42,367 nt of DNA from the IMG/VR virus record IMGVR_UViG_2563366848_000004, one strand, 5' to 3'. Positions 2,835-42,367 of the stretch are shown here, one piece after another. This DNA comes from a virus (taxonomy: Duplodnaviria > Heunggongvirae > Uroviricota > Caudoviricetes). Under the pieces are notes generated by a model that saw only the letters and a program-made list of their open reading frames with translations, was not told the DNA's origin and did not search any database. Made by a program: the position numbers and the translations under genes. The first letter of the stretch is position 1; each line of letters starts with the position of its first letter.

Positions 2835-5744
2835 TTATGCATGAGTACGCAGCGCTTCAAGGCGGCGCAGGTCGAAGTCGTTCAGTTCGTCGGTGTAGTC
2901 AGCAGTGATTGGCGCTGGCCATTCACCTGTGTCGAATCCGGTTGCGATATTGCGCATCGCTTTGCGGTACTCGAGCATACCCAGCTCCAGTAGTTCAGCG
3001 GATGCCTCGATGATGGCGATCCAGTGGTAGTTCTCGTCTTTGTTGACGAAAATCCAGAAGAACTGATCCAGCGCTGCGGTTTCGCAGTACATAGCCGCGC
3101 TCAGGTGATAATCACGTTCAATAATTTCCCGGTGTAGCCTGGCGCGCAGGCTTTCCTGCTTAACATTCCACATGCTGATGGTTTTCAGGTCAGCACCGAT
3201 ACGCACGCCGTCTAGGTCGATCTCAAGGTCAGGACGCACACGAACTTCCAGTCCCGTCTCCTCGTCAAAGCCAAAGTAGCTCACCTCAACGGCGCGGCTC
3301 GGGTGGGTTAGCAGCATGCCTGCGGTCGGGTGCGAGAGCAGTGCTGACTGAATTGCCTGCGCGGTGGCAAGTTGCTGGTGGGTAACCAGCACTTTCCCTT
3401 CCGGGTTGTTGCGCCAAGCATCGAGCAGCTCGTCGGCGAACACTGCATCTGGTTTGACTGCCTTCACGGCCTGAATCAGATCGGCCTTCGTGCCAGAGAC
3501 TTTCAGCGGTTGCAGCTTCTGAGCTTCCTGCGCGACCAGGTCAGGATTGATAATCGCAAGTTGTTCGAGTAGTGCGTCGCGGCTGCCGCTGGTTTTAATC
3601 TGCGCTGGCAGGGTGGCGTTGTACTCTTTGATGCACGCCTTCATTGCTGTTGCTGTCTTCTTCTGATCTGTATCGATACGTTGGAATTCAGCTGGCAGCG
3701 CCATATAGTTCTGCGCCGTTTCATCCAGGCTAGCGCCCAGCGGCACCAGCGCTGGCAGGGTGGCGTTGTATTCATCCAGCAAAGCTTTGATATCGTCTGC
3801 GCTCAGTTGCGCTGGCAGGCTGGCGTTGTACTCATCAATAAACGCGCGGATCGTTGCCGTGGTGGTAAATGCACCTTCCGGAATTACGGGTTCAACGCTA
3901 AATTCTTCATCGAGCTGTTCTGGCTGCAACGCCAGCGCATGTACCAGGTTTCCCATGTCCAGCACTGAGGAGCGCTCTTTGACGATGGTTTTCTCAACGT
4001 GGCGCGCATTGAAGTACATCAGCGAAACGCGCGCATCTTTTACCTGGGTGGAACTGATGCCGTTGGCAGCGTGGTAAACCTCGTTCGGCAGACCTTCATA
4101 GCGCCCAGGCTCGAAGTAATCGGGGTAAAAAACAGCTTGTTCGTCAGATTGCGCCTCTGGCTCGACGTGTGCCAAAACTGGTTCAGTCTGGTTTACAGAA
4201 TCGCTATTTTGAGCGACAGATTCCGTATTTTGGTTTACATCGGCCTGCTGGCCGGGATGTGACTCTTCACCAGTTTCCAGACTGCTTTCGCCTGACTGCA
4301 TTTCATTACCAACATTTTTTTCATCACTGACAGTTTCTTGAACCTGCACATTGCTGGTGGTTTCCGTAGCCTGTTTCGTGCCATGAGTTGCTGAGTTCTG
4401 CAGTAAAGCCGTAACATCGAATATTCCGTTGCCGACATTTTTAACCAGTTCTTGTTCGGCTTTATGTGGTTGTGCTGTCGCTTCCTCTGCGCGGCGGCGT
4501 GCTTCTTCTTCACGTACGCGTCGCAGGTTCTCTTCGTGAGTGCAGAAGGGTTTGCGTGGAGACTCCTTACTTTCAGGTTGGGGAATTTCCTGTGTTGCGG
4601 GCTCAGCTTCATGCAATGGCAATAACTCAACAGCAGCATTAAACGCAGCAGTCATGGTCCGGTTAACAAACTCCAGGTGAGCGACAGGAGTTAGATGAAT
4701 ATTTTCCGGCGCGATACGTATCAGGTTAAAAATAGCTGTGCGGTTAACGCCAAGAACGCCGGGTTGATTGCGCAGAATGCTGCTCCATGATTTCCACGGT
4801 TCTTCTTTTTTGGTCACGATTTCTTTAGCGCGACGAAGAATGCTGCCCGGGATCTCGAAGTGGTTGAAGTCCATAGGCAGAAGGGCACATGCAATCTCTA
4901 AATCGAGAGTGTCAAGGGTATGGTATGTATCAGGTCCACGGTCAGTGACGTAACCGCCGTTGGCATTGGTTCCGGAATCAGTACGCTGAACACTACTGAT
5001 GTGATTACCGGCAGCCCATTCACGCGCCAGGATGCCACGGTCAATGTAATCAGTAGCCGCCCACATTCTGGTGAAACGGAGTACCAGCGCGAGTTCGTGA
5101 CGCTTGTCCTGGCTGAACACTTTGCGAATGGCATCGGTGTAGCGCCACAGGTCTTTGGTGTCGTAACCCTTCACTTCCGGGCAGTTCTCAGCAGCTAACA
5201 GCAAGTTCTGGACGTAACTGTTATCAGTGTCCATCTCCAGCGCGCCGATAGCTTCGTACTCTTCGCGGGTTACGTGGTGGCGCAGTTCGTCGGCGGTGAA
5301 CTGGGAAAGCAGTTGCTTACGAAACGGCATCTGCACTACCGGGTAGAGGGTTGAGTCGTCGTCGTGTTCGTCCAGCGTGATGCCAGCGGTTTCTGGCAGC
5401 GTTGACTCAGTAGTTATGTGACTATCAACGGTCTGAGCTGTTTTCTCGTCAGAGTTTTCAGCTGTGACTTTTGGCAGCCAGGTGCGGTCATCGTTCTGCA
5501 GTTCGTAGCGTTCGCACCAGGTGTAATCCACTGCGCCTTCTTCCGGCAGGTCGTCATATACCGGGAAATCGGTGCGGATTGGTTTGGCATAATCTTTACC
5601 GCGGCCAGTTTCTTCAATTCCGGCTTCTTCCAGTGCCACATCGAGTTGGAGATTGGCGCGCGCTACACTTTTCGCAGTGAACCAAATCACTGCATCTTTC
5701 TTGCCAGACTTCTGACTGGCTTTTATCAGATGGAAAAATTCCAT
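2835..5744 (-). CDS. RecE-like exonuclease VIII (C-terminal PD-(D/E)xK nuclease domain)
   Basis: 969-aa ORF from internal ATG (MEFFHLIKAS) with AAGAGGA SD; C-terminal region carries RPDLEIDLDG...IGADLKT (PD...DxK nuclease motif); large acidic/low-complexity linker; positioned upstream of annealase as in Rac recE-recT. Confidence 0.65.
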   Translation of the reverse strand: MEFFHLIKASQKSGKKDAVIWFTAKSVARANLQLDVALEEAGIEETGRGKDYAKPIRTDFPVYDDLPEEGAVDYTWCERYELQNDDRTWLPKVTAENSDEKTAQTVDSHITTESTLPETAGITLDEHDDDSTLYPVVQMPFRKQLLSQFTADELRHHVTREEYEAIGALEMDTDNSYVQNLLLAAENCPEVKGYDTKDLWRYTDAIRKVFSQDKRHELALVLRFTRMWAATDYIDRGILAREWAAGNHISSVQRTDSGTNANGGYVTDRGPDTYHTLDTLDLEIACALLPMDFNHFEIPGSILRRAKEIVTKKEEPWKSWSSILRNQPGVLGVNRTAIFNLIRIAPENIHLTPVAHLEFVNRTMTAAFNAAVELLPLHEAEPATQEIPQPESKESPRKPFCTHEENLRRVREEEARRRAEEATAQPHKAEQELVKNVGNGIFDVTALLQNSATHGTKQATETTSNVQVQETVSDEKNVGNEMQSGESSLETGEESHPGQQADVNQNTESVAQNSDSVNQTEPVLAHVEPEAQSDEQAVFYPDYFEPGRYEGLPNEVYHAANGISSTQVKDARVSLMYFNARHVEKTIVKERSSVLDMGNLVHALALQPEQLDEEFSVEPVIPEGAFTTTATIRAFIDEYNASLPAQLSADDIKALLDEYNATLPALVPLGASLDETAQNYMALPAEFQRIDTDQKKTATAMKACIKEYNATLPAQIKTSGSRDALLEQLAIINPDLVAQEAQKLQPLKVSGTKADLIQAVKAVKPDAVFADELLDAWRNNPEGKVLVTHQQLATAQAIQSALLSHPTAGMLLTHPSRAVEVSYFGFDEETGLEVRVRPDLEIDLDGVRIGADLKTISMWNVKQESLRARLHREIIERDYHLSAAMYCETAALDQFFWIFVNKDENYHWIAIIEASAELLELGMLEYRKAMRNIATGFDTGEWPAPITADYTDELNDFDLRRLEALRTHA

Positions 5745-6838: not shown

Positions 6839-8143
6839 TTATTGACGATTAAAGTAGTTAGAGTTTAGCTCTTTAGGGAAGTAGTGTTTACGATTTACCC
6901 AAACAAATCCATCAACTTTTGATATCACAGCGACATCAACAGGCCCACCGACAGTTTCATAATCATGTGATACTTTTCTTTTGAATGCAGTGATGTTCAC
7001 TAATGATTCGGCCATATACGCAAGATCTGCCTTCCCAAGTGATTGCAACATCGATATCATTTTATTTGTATGGTTATTAACAATATAGCTTTCAAGTTTA
7101 GTATCGTGATCTTGTAAAAGTACGTTTTTGAGTTCCTCAATTTCACTGGAGAAGTGATTGGCTAGTACTCCATTGTTCATTGCAGGGAAAATATTGCTAG
7201 AAACATAATGATTAAGCCGATCAAAAACTTCCTCTGTAAGAGTTCTGTTAAAATTAATGATGTTAGGGTTGCACCCATCAATGAAAGTTACTACTTCATC
7301 TTCTTGAGCAAATGGTATAACAAACCCCATATTGGTTACCTTATTATGGGATTTATCATCAATATTATGGATCATCAATTTGTTTTTAAAAATGCCGTAG
7401 ATATGAAGAGTGCAAATGGAAGGGTAATATTCTTCCTCTCCATAACCTGTTATAACAATCCCTGAATATGTACGACTAGCATGGACTTTGAAAATTAAAC
7501 AAGTGGAATATAATATGACTTTTTCCATAAGCTCTTGCTGTATATTTTCACAGTTATCAAGAACAATAATTGATGAAATGTATGGCGATATTAAATCTTG
7601 TATATATGCTAAAGCATCATTAAACTCTTCTGTATCAAACCCTTCGAAAAAGAGATTATTCCTTAAGATTCCTATCTCTAAATCAAAGGCTTGCTTAACT
7701 ATGTTTTGAAAAATAACATTGTCGAGTTCAACGGCGGGGTTCATTGTTAAATAGTTTACTACATTATTATCATTAATGTATCTCATCAAACCTTTGAGGT
7801 TATCAACAACAAGGTTTATAACGCAAGCCTCTCTCATTTCATTTGTTATAAGGTCTGAGTTACCATTGATGAATTTTACAAAGTCATTAACATATTCTTT
7901 AATGGTAGGGAAACTAGTTTTCCCCAATTGTTTTCTATAGGATTTAATTATAAGTTCCCACGGTGCGCCACCCAGTGTCGCATTATTATAAATCATGATC
8001 CCCACGGGATGGTGTTTAGATAGTTCGAATAGTTTTTCCGCACTATTATTTATTTTTACTAATCTATTATGCTCTGTGGTGACTGCAGAGTCAGCAGCAA
8101 GGGCGATTCCAGTATTATTTATTACAACAATCTCAGCTGTCAT
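6839..8143 (-). CDS. AT-rich 435-aa protein with proteasome-beta/HslV-like Ntn-hydrolase signature; candidate lysogen-expressed defence protein
   Basis: Long ORF in a markedly AT-rich island; start at ATG 8143 (MTAEIVV..., GGGA upstream) preferred over track start 8242, which has no SD; N-terminus T2-x15-D18 ... K30-I and C-terminus DYETVGGPVDVAVISKVDGFVWV resemble Ntn threonine-protease motifs (from memory); same strand as and downstream of the repressor. Confidence 0.75.
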   Translation of the reverse strand: MTAEIVVINNTGIALAADSAVTTEHNRLVKINNSAEKLFELSKHHPVGIMIYNNATLGGAPWELIIKSYRKQLGKTSFPTIKEYVNDFVKFINGNSDLITNEMREACVINLVVDNLKGLMRYINDNNVVNYLTMNPAVELDNVIFQNIVKQAFDLEIGILRNNLFFEGFDTEEFNDALAYIQDLISPYISSIIVLDNCENIQQELMEKVILYSTCLIFKVHASRTYSGIVITGYGEEEYYPSICTLHIYGIFKNKLMIHNIDDKSHNKVTNMGFVIPFAQEDEVVTFIDGCNPNIINFNRTLTEEVFDRLNHYVSSNIFPAMNNGVLANHFSSEIEELKNVLLQDHDTKLESYIVNNHTNKMISMLQSLGKADLAYMAESLVNITAFKRKVSHDYETVGGPVDVAVISKVDGFVWVNRKHYFPKELNSNYFNRQ

Positions 8144-8164
8144 TGCAAAACATCCCGTGTAGTA

Positions 8165-8201
8165 GTGATAAATATTAATTAAATTGATAGTTTTTTTCAA
8201 T
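8165..8201 (-). promoter_or_regulatory. putative sigma70 promoter for the 435-aa gene
   Basis: Minus-strand TTGAAA (8200..8195) - 17 nt - TAATAT (8177..8172), about 30 nt upstream of start codon 8143; AT-rich DNA raises the chance of spurious matches. Confidence 0.35.
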
Positions 8202-8284
8202 CTAACATAAATGGCGGAATCACCCCCCAGTAAAGACATCATTGTCTCATGGGAACTAAAAATTCAGGACAAACCTAAAGCGAT

Positions 8285-38259: not shown

Positions 38260-38936
38260 GCAAATACACCGAACTGATCACGAACTACCACGCCACCAAA
38301 CCTAAATTTCTTGCACATGTTGATCTGATGACCCGGCCGCTTATTGATGTTGCGGCTGCCACCAGAGGGCTGATTACTGCATTTGATATTGACTCTGCGG
38401 TTGGTGTGCAACTTGACATTCTGGGATTGTGGATCGGACGCAGCCGTGTTGTCAGCCAGCCTATCTCAGGTGTTTATTTCAGCTGGGATACCGACGGGCT
38501 TGGATATGATCAGGGTGTATGGCAGGGGCCATACGATCCTGATTCCGGATACATGTACCTCAGCGATGAAACTTATCGTGTCATCCTTAAAGCGAAGATT
38601 GCGATTAATAACTGGGACGGACGGAATGATTCGCTTCCAGCAATTCTTGACGCGGCGACAGCAGGATCCGGACTGCGAATGCAGATAGTCGATAACCAGG
38701 ACATGACGATATCGGTCTGGCTCTTTCCTGATACTGATATTTCAGATGTATCGCGTGAGTTAATTGCTGCAATTAAACAGGGCTATCTCACAGTAAAAGC
38801 CGCTGGCGTCTGGGCCGGTGGCATTGAAATACCCTCGGTGGAAACGCCCAGCGAGGGCACCCGATTCTTTGGGTTCGACATGGACAATGACTATATCGTC
38901 GGTTTCGACGCCGGCGCATGGGGGAAATTACTCTGA
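38256..38936 (+). CDS. tail protein I-like (baseplate wedge/fibre attachment, putative)
   Basis: 226-aa ORF with ATGA-type overlap with neighbours, directly upstream of the tail fibre. Confidence 0.55.
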   Translation: MSKYTELITNYHATKPKFLAHVDLMTRPLIDVAAATRGLITAFDIDSAVGVQLDILGLWIGRSRVVSQPISGVYFSWDTDGLGYDQGVWQGPYDPDSGYMYLSDETYRVILKAKIAINNWDGRNDSLPAILDAATAGSGLRMQIVDNQDMTISVWLFPDTDISDVSRELIAAIKQGYLTVKAAGVWAGGIEIPSVETPSEGTRFFGFDMDNDYIVGFDAGAWGKLL

Positions 38937-39838
38937 TGGCTAAAAATGAATTTAAACCATTTGCAACTGGCTCTGGTGCTAACGTAACAACTCAGACAGA
39001 CTGGGAATCATTACCTGTCCTATCTGCTGGCTTTACATCGGGGAAGGCATCAAGTGCTCAGGTGAACAAAGGTCTGAGGCAAGGAACGGCAATGGCGGCT
39101 GCTGTGGGGCAGTTTATCGCAGATAATACCAATGAGGATGTGAAAGATAATGGTGATATTGCGGGGCTCTCTGCGCAATTAGCGAGTGCGGTAGAGCAGG
39201 CTGCAACAGGACGGCTTATTGGTGTTCGCACAATAACGATATCCGGGACTTATACGCCAACCCCAGGAACGAAAAGCATTATTGTTGAAGTCCAAGGCGC
39301 AGGCGGAGGAGGGGGCGGGGTTGGTACAACTAACTCTACCAGTGTTGCAGTTGGGTGTGGGGGGGGAAGTGGCGCCTACGCTAAATCCCGTATCGCCAAT
39401 TTAGACTCAGCATACACCGTAATTATTGGTGCTGGTGGTGCTGGTGGAGTAAATGGTAATGGAGGGAATGGAGGTAGCACTTCTTTTGGAACGATTACCG
39501 CAGGTGGCGGATATGGTGGTGGTTCAAGTAACTCCGTTCCTCCAATTATCCAGAATGCTTCTGGAATTCCTACAGCCACTGGTGGGAATATCATAAACTT
39601 ATCTGGAAATAACCCTAGCATAGGCATGGCATTTTCTGCCAACGTCATTATTTCGGGAGGAGGTGCTAGTAGTATATTAGGGGCTGGTGGTAGCCCACAC
39701 GGTACAGCAGGCATTGGTAGAGAAGCTACCGGCTATGGTGCTGGAGGTGGTGGCGCAAATGCATATCAAAATAGCAGCGCACAATACAATGGTGCATCTG
39801 GTAGCAGTGGGGTTGTTATTGTCTGGGAGTATGCATAA
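38936..39838 (+). CDS. tail fibre protein with glycine-rich C-terminal domain
   Basis: Start at ATG overlapping upstream stop (MAKNEFKPFATGSGANVTTQTDWESL..., a conserved fibre N-terminus); C-terminal half is Gly-rich repeats (GAGGGGGGVG, GAGGAGGVNGNGGNGG) with lower GC. Confidence 0.75.
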   Translation: MAKNEFKPFATGSGANVTTQTDWESLPVLSAGFTSGKASSAQVNKGLRQGTAMAAAVGQFIADNTNEDVKDNGDIAGLSAQLASAVEQAATGRLIGVRTITISGTYTPTPGTKSIIVEVQGAGGGGGGVGTTNSTSVAVGCGGGSGAYAKSRIANLDSAYTVIIGAGGAGGVNGNGGNGGSTSFGTITAGGGYGGGSSNSVPPIIQNASGIPTATGGNIINLSGNNPSIGMAFSANVIISGGGASSILGAGGSPHGTAGIGREATGYGAGGGGANAYQNSSAQYNGASGSSGVVIVWEYA

Positions 39839-40026
39839 TGAAATACGCTATTATTGAAAATAACATCGTAAAGAATTTGGTTTTATGGAACGGTAAAGGA
39901 GATTTACTTGGTGTGTCACAGCGTTATAAAGTCGATGATGACATAACTGTAAATATCGGAGATGAAGTTAGAGTCAATAATGGAGTGTTAGAAATTGTAA
40001 GTAAATATCCATTTTTCCCATTGTAA
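39838..40026 (+). CDS. small protein coupled to the tail fibre (possible fibre assembly chaperone)
   Basis: 62-aa AT-rich ORF whose ATG overlaps the fibre stop (TAATG). Confidence 0.45.
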   Translation: MKYAIIENNIVKNLVLWNGKGDLLGVSQRYKVDDDITVNIGDEVRVNNGVLEIVSKYPFFPL

Positions 40027-40077
40027 TTTAAAAGATGGGGGTGTCTTCATAGTTGCCCCCACATAGATATCACTATT

Positions 40078-41124
40078 TTATTTGTTATTTTCTTCTAACG
40101 TTATATGTTTGATTGATTCTCTGTTGTAAGTATAAGTTATATGTATTTTCCCATTTGAGCTTTGTATAATCGCAGGATAGGAGAACTCTTTTCCCTCTTG
40201 TGATTCCAGCGTTAACACATTACCCCATGTTTTCCCGTTATCATTAGATCTGGAAATAGACAAGATGCTTCTGTCTTTCCCTGGGTTATGCACAATTAAC
40301 CCTGTACCATCTCGTAATACGATGCCGTCAACACCACTATTAGTTGAGGGTATCGTGCTTTTTCTTAGCGTAGTCCATGAGTGACCACTATCTGATGACT
40401 GAGATTCCATTAATACTCCTTGATCGCTGCGAGTATACATTTTTATCTCATTATCACGGAATTTTAATAGCGTTGGTTGTATAGCTGAGGTGCCTGTAGG
40501 TTTCGATACTTCTATCTTATTAAAATTCTTCATGTTACTGGTTGTTTCTATGTGAACAAACCATCCCTTATCATTCTCCTCACTGGAAGGGAACAAAACG
40601 TTCTTTCCAGAAAGAATTGGCTTGTTTTTTATTGGCCCGTAAATTCCGTTTGGCAATGCTTGTTTTTTACTCCAACTTAACCCATTGTTGGTCGAAGTAA
40701 TATATTTACCTTCCCATGTGCTAGGTGTTTTTCCTACTTTATAGAAAAGGTATGTTTTATTATGTATATTGAATAAAACTGGATTCCATGTAGGAAGCGG
40801 CTTGCCATCCTCACTGCCATAGGCAACAACGCGCGGTTTTGACCATCCGGATTCAGTCATGGAGGATTGCCAAATCTTTACGTCATCATCACCCTCTTTT
40901 GTCCCACCAAACCATGAGACAAGGATGGTTCCATTACTCATCTCTGCAATAGTGCTTGCGTGAGATTCTTTTATCAACCCCAGTGGGAAGATCAATTCTT
41001 GCTTTATAATTTTAAATGTGCTTTCAGCGTGTGCTAATAGTGATAGCTGAAAAGTTAGAAAGCCTAAAATGAAATAAACATATTTACGCATCTTTGCCAT
41101 TCTATAAAAATTTAACATTATCAT
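40078..41124 (-). CDS. secreted BNR/Asp-box repeat protein (sialidase/glycosidase-like), moron
   Basis: 348-aa ORF with AGGGAG SD; N-terminal signal-peptide-like segment ending LLAHA; three Asp-box-like motifs (STNNGLSWS, SSDSGHSWT, SRSNDNGKTWG); AT-rich; opposite strand to the tail genes. Confidence 0.7.
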   Translation of the reverse strand: MIMLNFYRMAKMRKYVYFILGFLTFQLSLLAHAESTFKIIKQELIFPLGLIKESHASTIAEMSNGTILVSWFGGTKEGDDDVKIWQSSMTESGWSKPRVVAYGSEDGKPLPTWNPVLFNIHNKTYLFYKVGKTPSTWEGKYITSTNNGLSWSKKQALPNGIYGPIKNKPILSGKNVLFPSSEENDKGWFVHIETTSNMKNFNKIEVSKPTGTSAIQPTLLKFRDNEIKMYTRSDQGVLMESQSSDSGHSWTTLRKSTIPSTNSGVDGIVLRDGTGLIVHNPGKDRSILSISRSNDNGKTWGNVLTLESQEGKEFSYPAIIQSSNGKIHITYTYNRESIKHITLEENNK

Positions 41125-41192
41125 ATGGTAACACTCCCTGATCTAAAAAAAAACGCTACGTATGGAAACACGCAACGAGCATGCATAGTCTC

Positions 41193-41502
41193 GTCATCAT
41201 GAATCGCCACGGGTTTAACAGACACCTCAGAGTCATTTAAGATGGCTTAAAGAGAGGTGCCCATGAGCGGTAAGCGTTATCCCGAAGAGTTTAAAACTGA
41301 AGCAGTCAAACAGGTTGTTGATCGCGGTTATTCTGTTGCCAGCGTTGCAACACGTCTCGATATCACCACCCACAGCCTTTATGCCTGGATAAAGAAGTAC
41401 GGTCCGGATTCTTCCACTAATAAAGAACAGTCAGATGCTCAGGCCGAGATCCGCCGTCTCCAGAAAGAGCTGAAACGGGTTTGTAGCTTCCTGCCAGCTT
41501 AA
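41193..41502 (+). mobile_element. IS3-family insertion sequence remnant (left end with truncated orfA)
   Basis: TGAATCGCCACGGG... resembles an IS3-family terminal repeat start; followed by an orfA-like HTH ORF that ends prematurely; no orfB or right end present. Confidence 0.45.
41263..41502 (+). pseudogene. IS3-family transposase OrfA fragment
   Basis: MSGKRYPEEFKTEAVKQVVDRGYSVASVATRLDITTHSLYAWIKKYG...EIRRLQKELKRV resembles IS3-family OrfA (HTH plus start of leucine zipper), then diverges into a short non-homologous tail and stops. Confidence 0.5.
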
Positions 41503-41733
41503 TAATTCGCGACCACCATCGGCACCTCGCCCGTCATCCCAGATACGAATGAAATCACCGCGGGCTTCAGGTAATACCAGTGAAGGAAACACTTTCGCCA
41601 GCACAGGGTAATCAGAGGCAGAAAATTTCGCCACGTTGAACTTCAAAAACACCATACTGGACCAGCTGTCGATTACAGTATTTGGCATTGCAGCGGACGG
41701 CCAGAAGAACGGAACGCCAATAGCTGGAGCACC

Positions 41734-41759
41734 TTCTCCCAAACCAACCTTTTTTATAA
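41734..41759. other. hix/gix-like invertase crossover site (degenerate)
   Basis: TTCTCCCAAACCAACCTTTTTTATAA matches hixL (TTCTTGAAAACCAAGGTTTTTGATAA, from memory) at 20 of 26 positions including the AA core; about 60 bp upstream of the invertase start. Confidence 0.35.
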
Positions 41760-41818
41760 CCATCAAAAATCTGGTGATGCTTCGCCGTTTCTCCTGTTTT
41801 CATAACAGGAGAAATCCC

Positions 41819-42367
41819 ATGATTTACGGTTATGCCCGAGTATCAACAAACCACCAGGACACTGAATTGCAACTAACGGCGCTCAAGTCAGCGGGTTGTG
41901 AGAAAATTTTTGAAGAGCATGCCAGCGGGAGGAAATCGAATCGGCCGGTTCTAAAACGGCTGATCGCCACTATGCAGCCGGGGGATGAACTGGTGGTCTG
42001 GAAGCTGGACAGGATAGGCCGCAACGTTCTGCATGCGCTGTTGATGTTCCAGCAGTTACAGGAAAAGGGTATCAACTTCCGCAGTATTACCGATGGCGTG
42101 GATCTCAAAACAGCCAGCGGCCGCTATAACTTTCGTAACATCCTTTCCGCAGCACAATATGAATCTGATCTTAATAGCGGACGTACCTTAGCAGGGCTGG
42201 CCGTAGCCAGGGCAAAAGGGCGAGTTGGTGGTCGCAGGCCTAAGTTCACGGATGAGCAATGGCGGGAAATGGGGGAGCGGATGGCAACCGGTGAATCACG
42301 ACAAAGCGTATCAAAAACGTATGGAGTAGGGCTCTCAACTCTGTATAAAAAGTTTCCAGCTAGTTGA
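41819..42367 (+). CDS. serine recombinase, DNA invertase (Pin/Gin/Hin family)
   Basis: Start at ATG 41819 with AGGAGAAA SD (track ORF has a spurious 61-codon N-terminal extension); MIYGYARVSTNHQDTELQ catalytic-serine N-terminus, resolvase core and C-terminal HTH (SVSKTYGVGLSTLYKKF). Confidence 0.85.
   Translation: MIYGYARVSTNHQDTELQLTALKSAGCEKIFEEHASGRKSNRPVLKRLIATMQPGDELVVWKLDRIGRNVLHALLMFQQLQEKGINFRSITDGVDLKTASGRYNFRNILSAAQYESDLNSGRTLAGLAVARAKGRVGGRRPKFTDEQWREMGERMATGESRQSVSKTYGVGLSTLYKKFPAS

Follow-up and report, generated by a model that had tools for sequence, protein, structure and literature searches.

The window analysed here is a stretch of 42,367 nucleotides from a tailed phage of the Caudoviricetes, which opens at the ATG of a tyrosine integrase gene (1-1194) and closes at the stop codon of a DNA invertase gene (42365-42367). 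These limits suggest a predicted prophage that was trimmed to gene boundaries, with neither att site inside. Its right end carries a glycine-rich tail fibre gene, a short ORF and a sialidase-family gene, followed by a fragment of an insertion sequence (IS), the stub of an inverted alternative fibre tip (Sv'), a 26-bp crossover site and the invertase gene (Table 1). Further to the left, a 467-aa ORF on the minus strand (6839-8242) lies between recombination genes (RecT, RecE-like) and the repressor; this ORF has no Pfam or PADLOC match, and in PHROG it matches phrog_5990 (function unknown; 3.7e-178). PADLOC likewise returned nothing for the invertase or the sialidase-like gene, and Rfam matched nothing in 39800-42367.

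Table 1. Features at the right end of the window, in window coordinates
Feature	Position	Strand	Basis and details
Glycine-rich tail fibre without crossover site	38936..39838	+	Pfam Gly_rich_2, PHROG tail fibre families
62-aa ORF after the fibre	39838..40026	+	no family match; conserved with the fibre in E89
BNR/sialidase-family gene	40078..41124	-	Pfam BNR_2, 4e-70
IS3-family 5' fragment, 282 bp of ~1.23 kb	41200..41481	+	left inverted repeat and truncated orfA
Sv' stub (inverted alternative tail-fibre tip), ~85 codons after the site	41482..41733	-	PHROG and DNA homology
pix-type invertase-proximal 26-bp crossover site	41734..41759	+	inner half TTCTCCCAAACC, core AA (41746-41747), outer half CCTTTTTTATAA
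12-bp hairpin in the invertase leader, burying the Shine-Dalgarno AGGAG (41808-41812)	41787..41815	+	RNA fold
182-aa DNA invertase, Hin/Gin/Cin/Pin (Din) serine-recombinase subfamily, E121G	41819..42367	+	Pfam, PHROG, Gin alignment

Only the N-terminal ~90 aa of the glycine-rich fibre are homologous to switchable tail fibres. DNA homology to L003, a prophage of E. coli WEM25 with an intact fibre switch, stops at 38962, and the stretch that holds the distal crossover site in the relatives is absent from the window; the glycine-rich fibre stands in for their constant-plus-variable fibre. The sialidase-like gene has a signal-like N-terminus, lies in a low-GC stretch (~35-41%) and, from its sequence, looks like a prophage cargo gene. 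As a whole, the module of fibre, 62-aa ORF and sialidase-like gene has a counterpart of 93% identity at the right end of an E. coli E89 prophage, which is located beside dacD and contains no invertase. The sialidase-like gene is the last gene that this prophage has in common with the window, and the homology ends at 41201, exactly at the end of the IS. Among the complete-genome matches listed, only E89 and ET776 carried the sialidase gene together with the fibre module.

The left inverted repeat of the IS fragment, TGAATCGCCACGG, is the reverse complement of the right end of the element and hence a genuine terminus. The fragment is 99.3% identical to E. coli HS copies annotated as IS3 family transposase with a programmed frameshift; of the two inverted repeats and the orfA/orfB frameshift of a complete IS3 element, the window retains the left repeat within the first 282 bp only. 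The orfA remnant carries an HTH_Tnp_1 domain. The right break lies inside orfA, where the fragment is joined to Sv' through a shared GTT microhomology (41479-41481), and a 79-aa fusion ORF containing the HTH domain only spans the join (41263-41502). On the opposite strand, the open frame of Sv' runs from 41766 down to 41431, through the crossover site and into the IS fragment, and the stub matches the tail fibre family phrog_3100 (1.4e-39) over profile positions 208-291 of 382. From 41479 to 42367, the DNA is 96% identical to the inverted fibre-tip pseudogene and invertase of L001 (strain 21AR0133). The C-terminal ~63 codons of Sv', the alternative tip Sv, both tfa genes and the distal site are missing from the window, so that the alternative C-termini with tfa genes, present in L001, L003 and L012, are represented here by an 85-codon stub and no tfa. 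An earlier note on this DNA had recorded neither the minus-strand stub nor the IS3-family fragment that marks the breakpoint, nor the glutamate-to-glycine substitution in the invertase.

The crossover site and the search for its partner

The 26-mer at 41734-41759, TTCTCCCAAACCAACCTTTTTTATAA on the plus strand, occurs as a single copy in a search of the whole window and ends 59 nt before the invertase ATG (41819). At three mismatches or fewer, it was matched in 0 of 100 shuffled sequences. It consists of two 12-bp half-sites and a 2-bp core beside an invertase gene, as is characteristic of dix-type sites. The window 26-mer shares 20 of 26 positions with hixL, TTCTTGAAAACC AA GGTTTTTGATAA (PMC3241671, Table 3), and has CC at positions 15-16 where hixL has GG; the description in the earlier note, of a 26-mer about 60 bp upstream of the invertase with these very features, was thus reproduced in full. 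However, its reading of the site as degenerate is contradicted by three lines of comparison. Base for base, the 26-mer equals the site next to the invertase in L003, L012 and L013, which are intact two-site switches. Its left half and core are those of the published pixL and pixR, with the whole site matching pixR at 22 of 26 positions. Finally, GG at positions 15-16 is absent from the working sites pixR (CG), mix (CG), nix (CC) and hixR: from the core onward, pixR and mix read AA CGTTT... and nix reads AA CCTT..., while one half of hixR ends in GG (PMC3241671). On the strength of these comparisons, the window site is to be regarded as native rather than degenerate, an imperfect proximal half being normal in these switches.

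When the sites are compared as outer half, core and inner half, the core TT and the inner half GGTTTGGGAGAA are common to all of them. The outer halves of the distal sites are consensus-like and end in ACC, whereas those of the proximal sites are not: the window has TTATAAAAAAGG in this place, L001 and L017 have ATATTTGAAAGG, and the K-12 prophage e14 shares TTTTCATAAACG with the P2-like prophages of strains C10 and C11. In many E. coli genomes, homology to the window, at 99.5-99.7% identity, begins at 41731-41734 and continues to the window end, with unrelated DNA further left; a homology boundary at this position is as expected from a recombination site.

In the intact relatives, the two sites are paired by a 15-nt perfect inverted repeat, TTGGTTTGGGAGAAG. 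This repeat has no second match in the window at fewer than three mismatches, and three mismatches correspond to the level of chance; the three such matches, at 5579, 5808 and 10388, were rejected accordingly, those at 5579 and 5808 lying in or beside the RecE-like gene without a proper 26-mer. The 26-mer of the relatives' distal site is unmatched in the window. A half-site scan with mismatches, extended over the window and 9.1 kb beyond it, found the site at 41734 alone. Over the same span, a half-site weight matrix gave this site a score of 25.0 and the next-best 26-mer 9.1, where shuffled sequence reaches up to 14.7 and genuine sites range from 15 to 33; the matrix was built from published sites and from sites found here, the window site included, which makes for a minor circularity in these scores. 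The sequence past the window was recovered via the 79-aa ORF that is specific to the IS/Sv' junction, and it is chromosomal (yciI, tonB, yciA, yciB, yciC, ompW and onward) and contains no site.

A second, inverted site with the same core, which a Din-type switch has, was therefore not found in the 42.4-kb window or in the 9.1 kb beyond. The mismatch-tolerant search for 26-mers that the earlier note had called for returns one site only in this combined span, and the repeat, 26-mer, half-site and weight-matrix scans all agree with its statement that no inverted partner lies in or near the fibre gene. Of the two explanations offered there, a decayed or reorganised switch holds up, whereas a partner beyond the window is rejected for the stretch covered, the next 9.1 kb, which is chromosomal and devoid of sites. 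Since there is a single site, the invertase would be left without a substrate in cis, and the locus is predicted to be unable to invert.

Intact switches and the spread of the junction

The intact relatives share one order of elements: the constant part of the fibre, the distal site, Sv, tfa, the inverted tfa', the inverted Sv', the proximal site and the invertase. L003 has the same baseplate genes as the window, then the full switch and then yciI, and its distal partner site, inside the fibre gene, reads TTCTCACATACC TT GGTTTGGGAGAA. L012 (strain LR-33) and L013 (strain Z22-6) also combine the window-type proximal site with a distal site, which in L013 was found by the weight-matrix scan and carries one mismatch. 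A synthetic flipped isomer of L003 is colinear with several natural genomes, across the site and into the invertase, and the unflipped form is colinear with others; the fibre tip found at the distal site in L003 sits at the proximal site in L012. The P2-like prophages of E. coli C11 (L018) and C10 (L019) form a natural pair of inversion isomers. Their flanking proteins are identical, the 1.85-kb fibre segment lies in opposite orientations, and the flanks are swapped exactly at the TT core. Sites of the window family are, by these genome comparisons, evidently used in nature. Matches to the fibre-switch segment are present in 3,201 of 5,426 complete E. coli genomes, at up to 8 places per genome.

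L001, L003, L013 and the window all lie beside yciI, with invertase genes that differ by 0-3 nt. Prophages that end in a near-identical invertase carry a lambdoid tail tip, a contractile-tail baseplate or an e14-like baseplate. The invertase end seems to persist at the yciI position while the upstream phage DNA is exchanged.

The closest known system is the Pin/P segment of e14 in E. coli K-12 (pixL/pixR), whose layout is that of the window's intact relatives. The inner half and core are identical in e14 and the window (TTCTCCCAAACC AA), and the proximal outer half of e14 is also imperfect (CGTTTATGAAAA). However, the window invertase and PinE share only 54% identity, the outer half of the window site reads CCTTTTTTATAA, its distal partner and the segment have been lost, and the element lies beside yciI, whereas e14 is at icd. 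The invertase of the Mu Gin/G segment (gixL/gixR) aligns with that of the window over its full length without gaps (50% identity). In Mu, as here, the invertase gene occupies the right end; it follows the inverted S'/U' genes, and a site lies immediately before it. In Mu, gixL and gixR are the same 26-mer, with a GA core, inside a 34-bp perfect repeat; in contrast, the window core is AA, the perfect repeat of the relatives is 15 nt long, and the window holds one site. The Salmonella Hin system (hixL/hixR) has a 26-bp site with an AA core like the window; besides the 20 of 26 positions shared with hixL, hixR resembles the window site in having one non-consensus half, ending in GG (CC in the orientation of the window site), and residue 121 of the window invertase is the counterpart of Hin E122. 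The hin gene lies inside its segment and the system acts on a flagellin promoter, while in the relatives of the window a phage fibre is switched and the invertase gene is outside. E. coli K-12 also has cryptic-prophage invertase genes without an invertible segment, e.g., pinQ, pinR and pinH. As here, these are serine invertases left at a decayed prophage end beside fibre remnants, although they belong to another invertase lineage, and the breakpoint, IS fragment and site of the window are defined to the nucleotide.

Public assemblies (NCBI, ENA, Logan) contain the 79-aa protein specific to the junction in 32 indexed blocks. The 8 junction loci listed agree in gene order, with yciI and tonB coming next, and all have E121G; two of them are 100% identical to the tail of the window. 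The IS/Sv' junction is unchanged in at least 15 inspected contigs and occurs with identical sequence in a 4.95-Mb scaffold and in the complete chromosome CP095180.1. Because it recurs unchanged in so many contigs, the junction is, on sequence grounds, real and of single origin. The module from fibre to invertase (38.9-42.4 kb, ~3.4 kb) differs by at most 1-2 nt in 7 of the 8 loci; in the eighth (L007), 18 mismatches and one gap are spread over the fibre, the 62-aa ORF, the sialidase gene and the invertase. Divergence across the same 8 loci is 7-22% in baseplate genes W, J and I and up to 1.2% in the chromosomal flank. A near-identical module next to divergent baseplate genes points to a single origin of the module and to its recent spread or recombination into differing backgrounds. 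Since the module is undiverged, the open frame of the invertase is no evidence of selection. The window arrangement was found in none of the 5,426 complete E. coli genomes searched, nor was an intermediate with the full IS found among them, and a scan for the exact junction in one-genome-per-species contigs gave no match.

The invertase, its leader and residue 121

The invertase has a Pfam Resolvase domain (5.5e-38) and an HTH_7 domain over residues 138-181 (1.5e-09), and it matches the DNA invertase family of PHROG at 1e-73. Residues 1-181 align without gaps to the Gin structures 3uj3 and 4m6f (E ~1e-55). In the Gin alignment, Y5, R7, S9, Q13, Q18, R42, D64, R65 and R68 occupy the catalytic positions, with residue roles taken from PMC2794168. 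The C-terminal HTH_7 and the length of 182 aa fit the Din subfamily (~180-195 aa).

The gene had been called intact in the earlier note, and the frame is indeed open and of full length; however, the protein carries E121G at an otherwise invariant residue. This substitution (codon 121, nt 42179-42181) is the sole difference from WP_000639140.1 of the intact switches. Position 121 is Glu in all 120 homologue cluster representatives (at least 78% identity) and at four intact-switch loci, and it is the only position at which the window invertase leaves a consensus of 90% or more. The residue, equivalent to E121 in Gin, E122 in Hin and E124 in resolvase, is the helix-E glutamate of these enzymes, in place of which the window has glycine. 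In Tn3 and gamma-delta resolvase, the equivalent glutamate is conserved but catalytically non-essential, and its role is regarded as a regulatory or structural one rather than a catalytic one. E124Q ranks among the secondary activating mutations of resolvase, and E122C in Hin, in the H107Y background, reduces cleavage. Judged from this comparison, the G121 enzyme is probably impaired or altered, weakened rather than null.

The exact G121 protein is found in 121 blocks, of which ~15 contigs were examined and at least 10 checked for sites. All 10 listed contexts are without a partner site, 8 of them having the sialidase/IS arrangement and 2 (L020 and L025) a different prophage end, while the E121 loci examined have two sites in 4 of 4 cases. 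The association between E121G and the loss of the partner is suggestive, but it is not phylogenetically independent, since the invertase copies differ by 0-1 nt only.

In L020 and L025, the G121 invertase also lies beside yciI, and the end of a lambdoid prophage (tfa, DinI, 99-aa ORF) meets the site, through which the 99-aa ORF reads. The site of these two contigs, at 3416-3441 (equivalent to window 41734-41759), is CCCTCCCAAACC AA CCTTTTTTATAA; its first two bases are changed, and unrelated DNA joins it 2 nt within the inner edge. The left half CCCTCCCAAACC had prompted the idea that this arrangement arose by invertase action at a pseudo-site. That origin is unsupported: the neighbouring ORF already parts from its native homologues ~41 nt short of the site, and a native pseudo-site was not found.

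The leader of the invertase gene folds into a hairpin of -25.5 kcal/mol (z = -4.2), a stability equalled in 0 of 200 shuffles, and the predicted structure may hold translation of the invertase low. The hairpin is identical in the intact-switch relatives, and the leaders of e14 and Mu have no obvious equivalent by eye. DNA invertase systems usually have a Fis-bound recombinational enhancer ~100 bp from the site, within the 5' part of the invertase coding sequence. The gin gene has two G-N13-C 15-mers at a distance of 48 bp, with centres at +53 and +101. At the homologous positions, the window shows weaker candidate matches, G...G over +46 to +60 and, over +94 to +108, a GC-rich core, to a Fis motif that is too degenerate to be decisive. 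The 5' 360 nt of the invertase gene are identical to those of the intact switches. Between the site and the invertase, no consensus sigma-70 promoter was detected in a promoter scan. The sole plus-strand candidate is the promoter region of IS orfA (41215-41243), transcription from which would cross the stub, in antisense, and the site toward the invertase.

Origin of the remnant and alternative readings

The region at the right end of the window is very probably the right-hand remnant of a Pin/Gin-type tail-fibre inversion switch, located at a prophage end beside yciI. It is a known kind of system in a decayed state, and the decay is of a kind ordinary for prophages. In the intact relatives, the invertase would bind the two inverted 26-bp sites, cut at the central TT/AA dinucleotides and rotate the strands. 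Strand exchange would flip ~1.85 kb, and the constant part of the fibre would thereby gain one of two tips that have separate assembly proteins. In the yciI-linked prophage, the fibre region would have been replaced by the E89-type module of glycine-rich fibre, 62-aa ORF and sialidase-like gene, with one homologous exchange in the baseplate region or the N-terminal region of the fibre as the first of two crossovers. An IS3-family element would have inserted downstream of the sialidase gene, and the other crossover would be an illegitimate join, through the GTT microhomology, of the IS to the interior of Sv'. The order of these events (IS insertion, module replacement, deletion) is a reconstruction that we infer from the arrangement.

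The alternative that survives best, although it is clearly the less probable account, is that the orphan invertase is kept in order to flip the pix-type fibre segments of other prophages in trans, its own site serving for binding or autoregulation only. The sequence TTCTCCCAAACC AA is identical in e14, in P2-like prophages and in other prophage switches that are served by different invertases, and candidate targets abound, given how common fibre-switch segments are among the complete E. coli genomes (3,201 of 5,426). Gin, Cin, Pin and Hin cross-complement one another, and the 5' part of the gene is unchanged with respect to the intact switches. The enzyme may retain some activity in trans on other prophage switches. 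However, the module is essentially undiverged, so that the open frame is no sign of selection, and the sole amino-acid change falls on an invariant residue at which the equivalent Hin E122C cleaves less.

That the G121 invertase is a functionally altered orphan, either deregulated in the manner of resolvase E124Q, so that it helped to destroy its own switch, or maintained for action in trans, is on the present comparisons unlikely. Deregulation in itself, in which E121G acts like E124Q of Tn3 and gamma-delta resolvase, relaxes the need for enhancer and topology and so promotes rearrangements that destroy the switch, is a very improbable account. It draws on the catalytic dispensability of the equivalent glutamate, on the contribution of E124Q to an activated resolvase that is independent of accessory sites, and on the occurrence of G121 only in partnerless contexts, of two kinds, against two sites at the four E121 loci. 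On the other hand, E124Q alone does not activate Tn3 resolvase, and a glycine in a long helix is likelier to be harmful. The breakpoint lies inside the IS and Sv', ~265 nt from the crossover dinucleotide and not at the site, and in L020 the homology of the neighbouring ORF ends ~41 nt before the site, which places that junction away from the core as well. The association of G121 with partnerless loci, with copies that differ by 0-1 nt, is moreover not phylogenetically independent.

It is more improbable still that the switch remains active by means of a cryptic and highly divergent partner site, be it in the fibre region or at another place in the prophage. Proximal outer half-sites do tolerate much variation, and Cin is known to use secondary sites. 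However, the next-ranking 26-mer, at 9.1 compared with 25.0 for the window site, is within the range of shuffled sequence and below the 15-33 of genuine sites; the glycine-rich fibre is without the region that holds the distal site in the relatives; and inversion of a stub that has neither its C-terminus nor tfa would give no working fibre. Mis-assembly of the IS/Sv' junction, which would be conceivable because IS elements often break or mis-join short-read assemblies, has a negligible probability in view of the identical junction in 32 NCBI, ENA and Logan blocks, including the 4.95-Mb scaffold and CP095180.1.

Read as the remnant of a tail-fibre inversion switch, the region shows at the nucleotide level how a phage host-range switch can be lost, with the fibre module replaced and the rest removed by an IS-associated illegitimate join. 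The prophage should accordingly have a single, fixed fibre, and a 'recombinase family protein' annotated beside yciI in such strains would be an orphan. The imperfect invertase-proximal site is the native state here and should not be taken for decay. The significance of the region beyond annotation is small, and the link between E121G and partnerless loci offers a small, testable lead on the regulation of DNA invertases through helix E.
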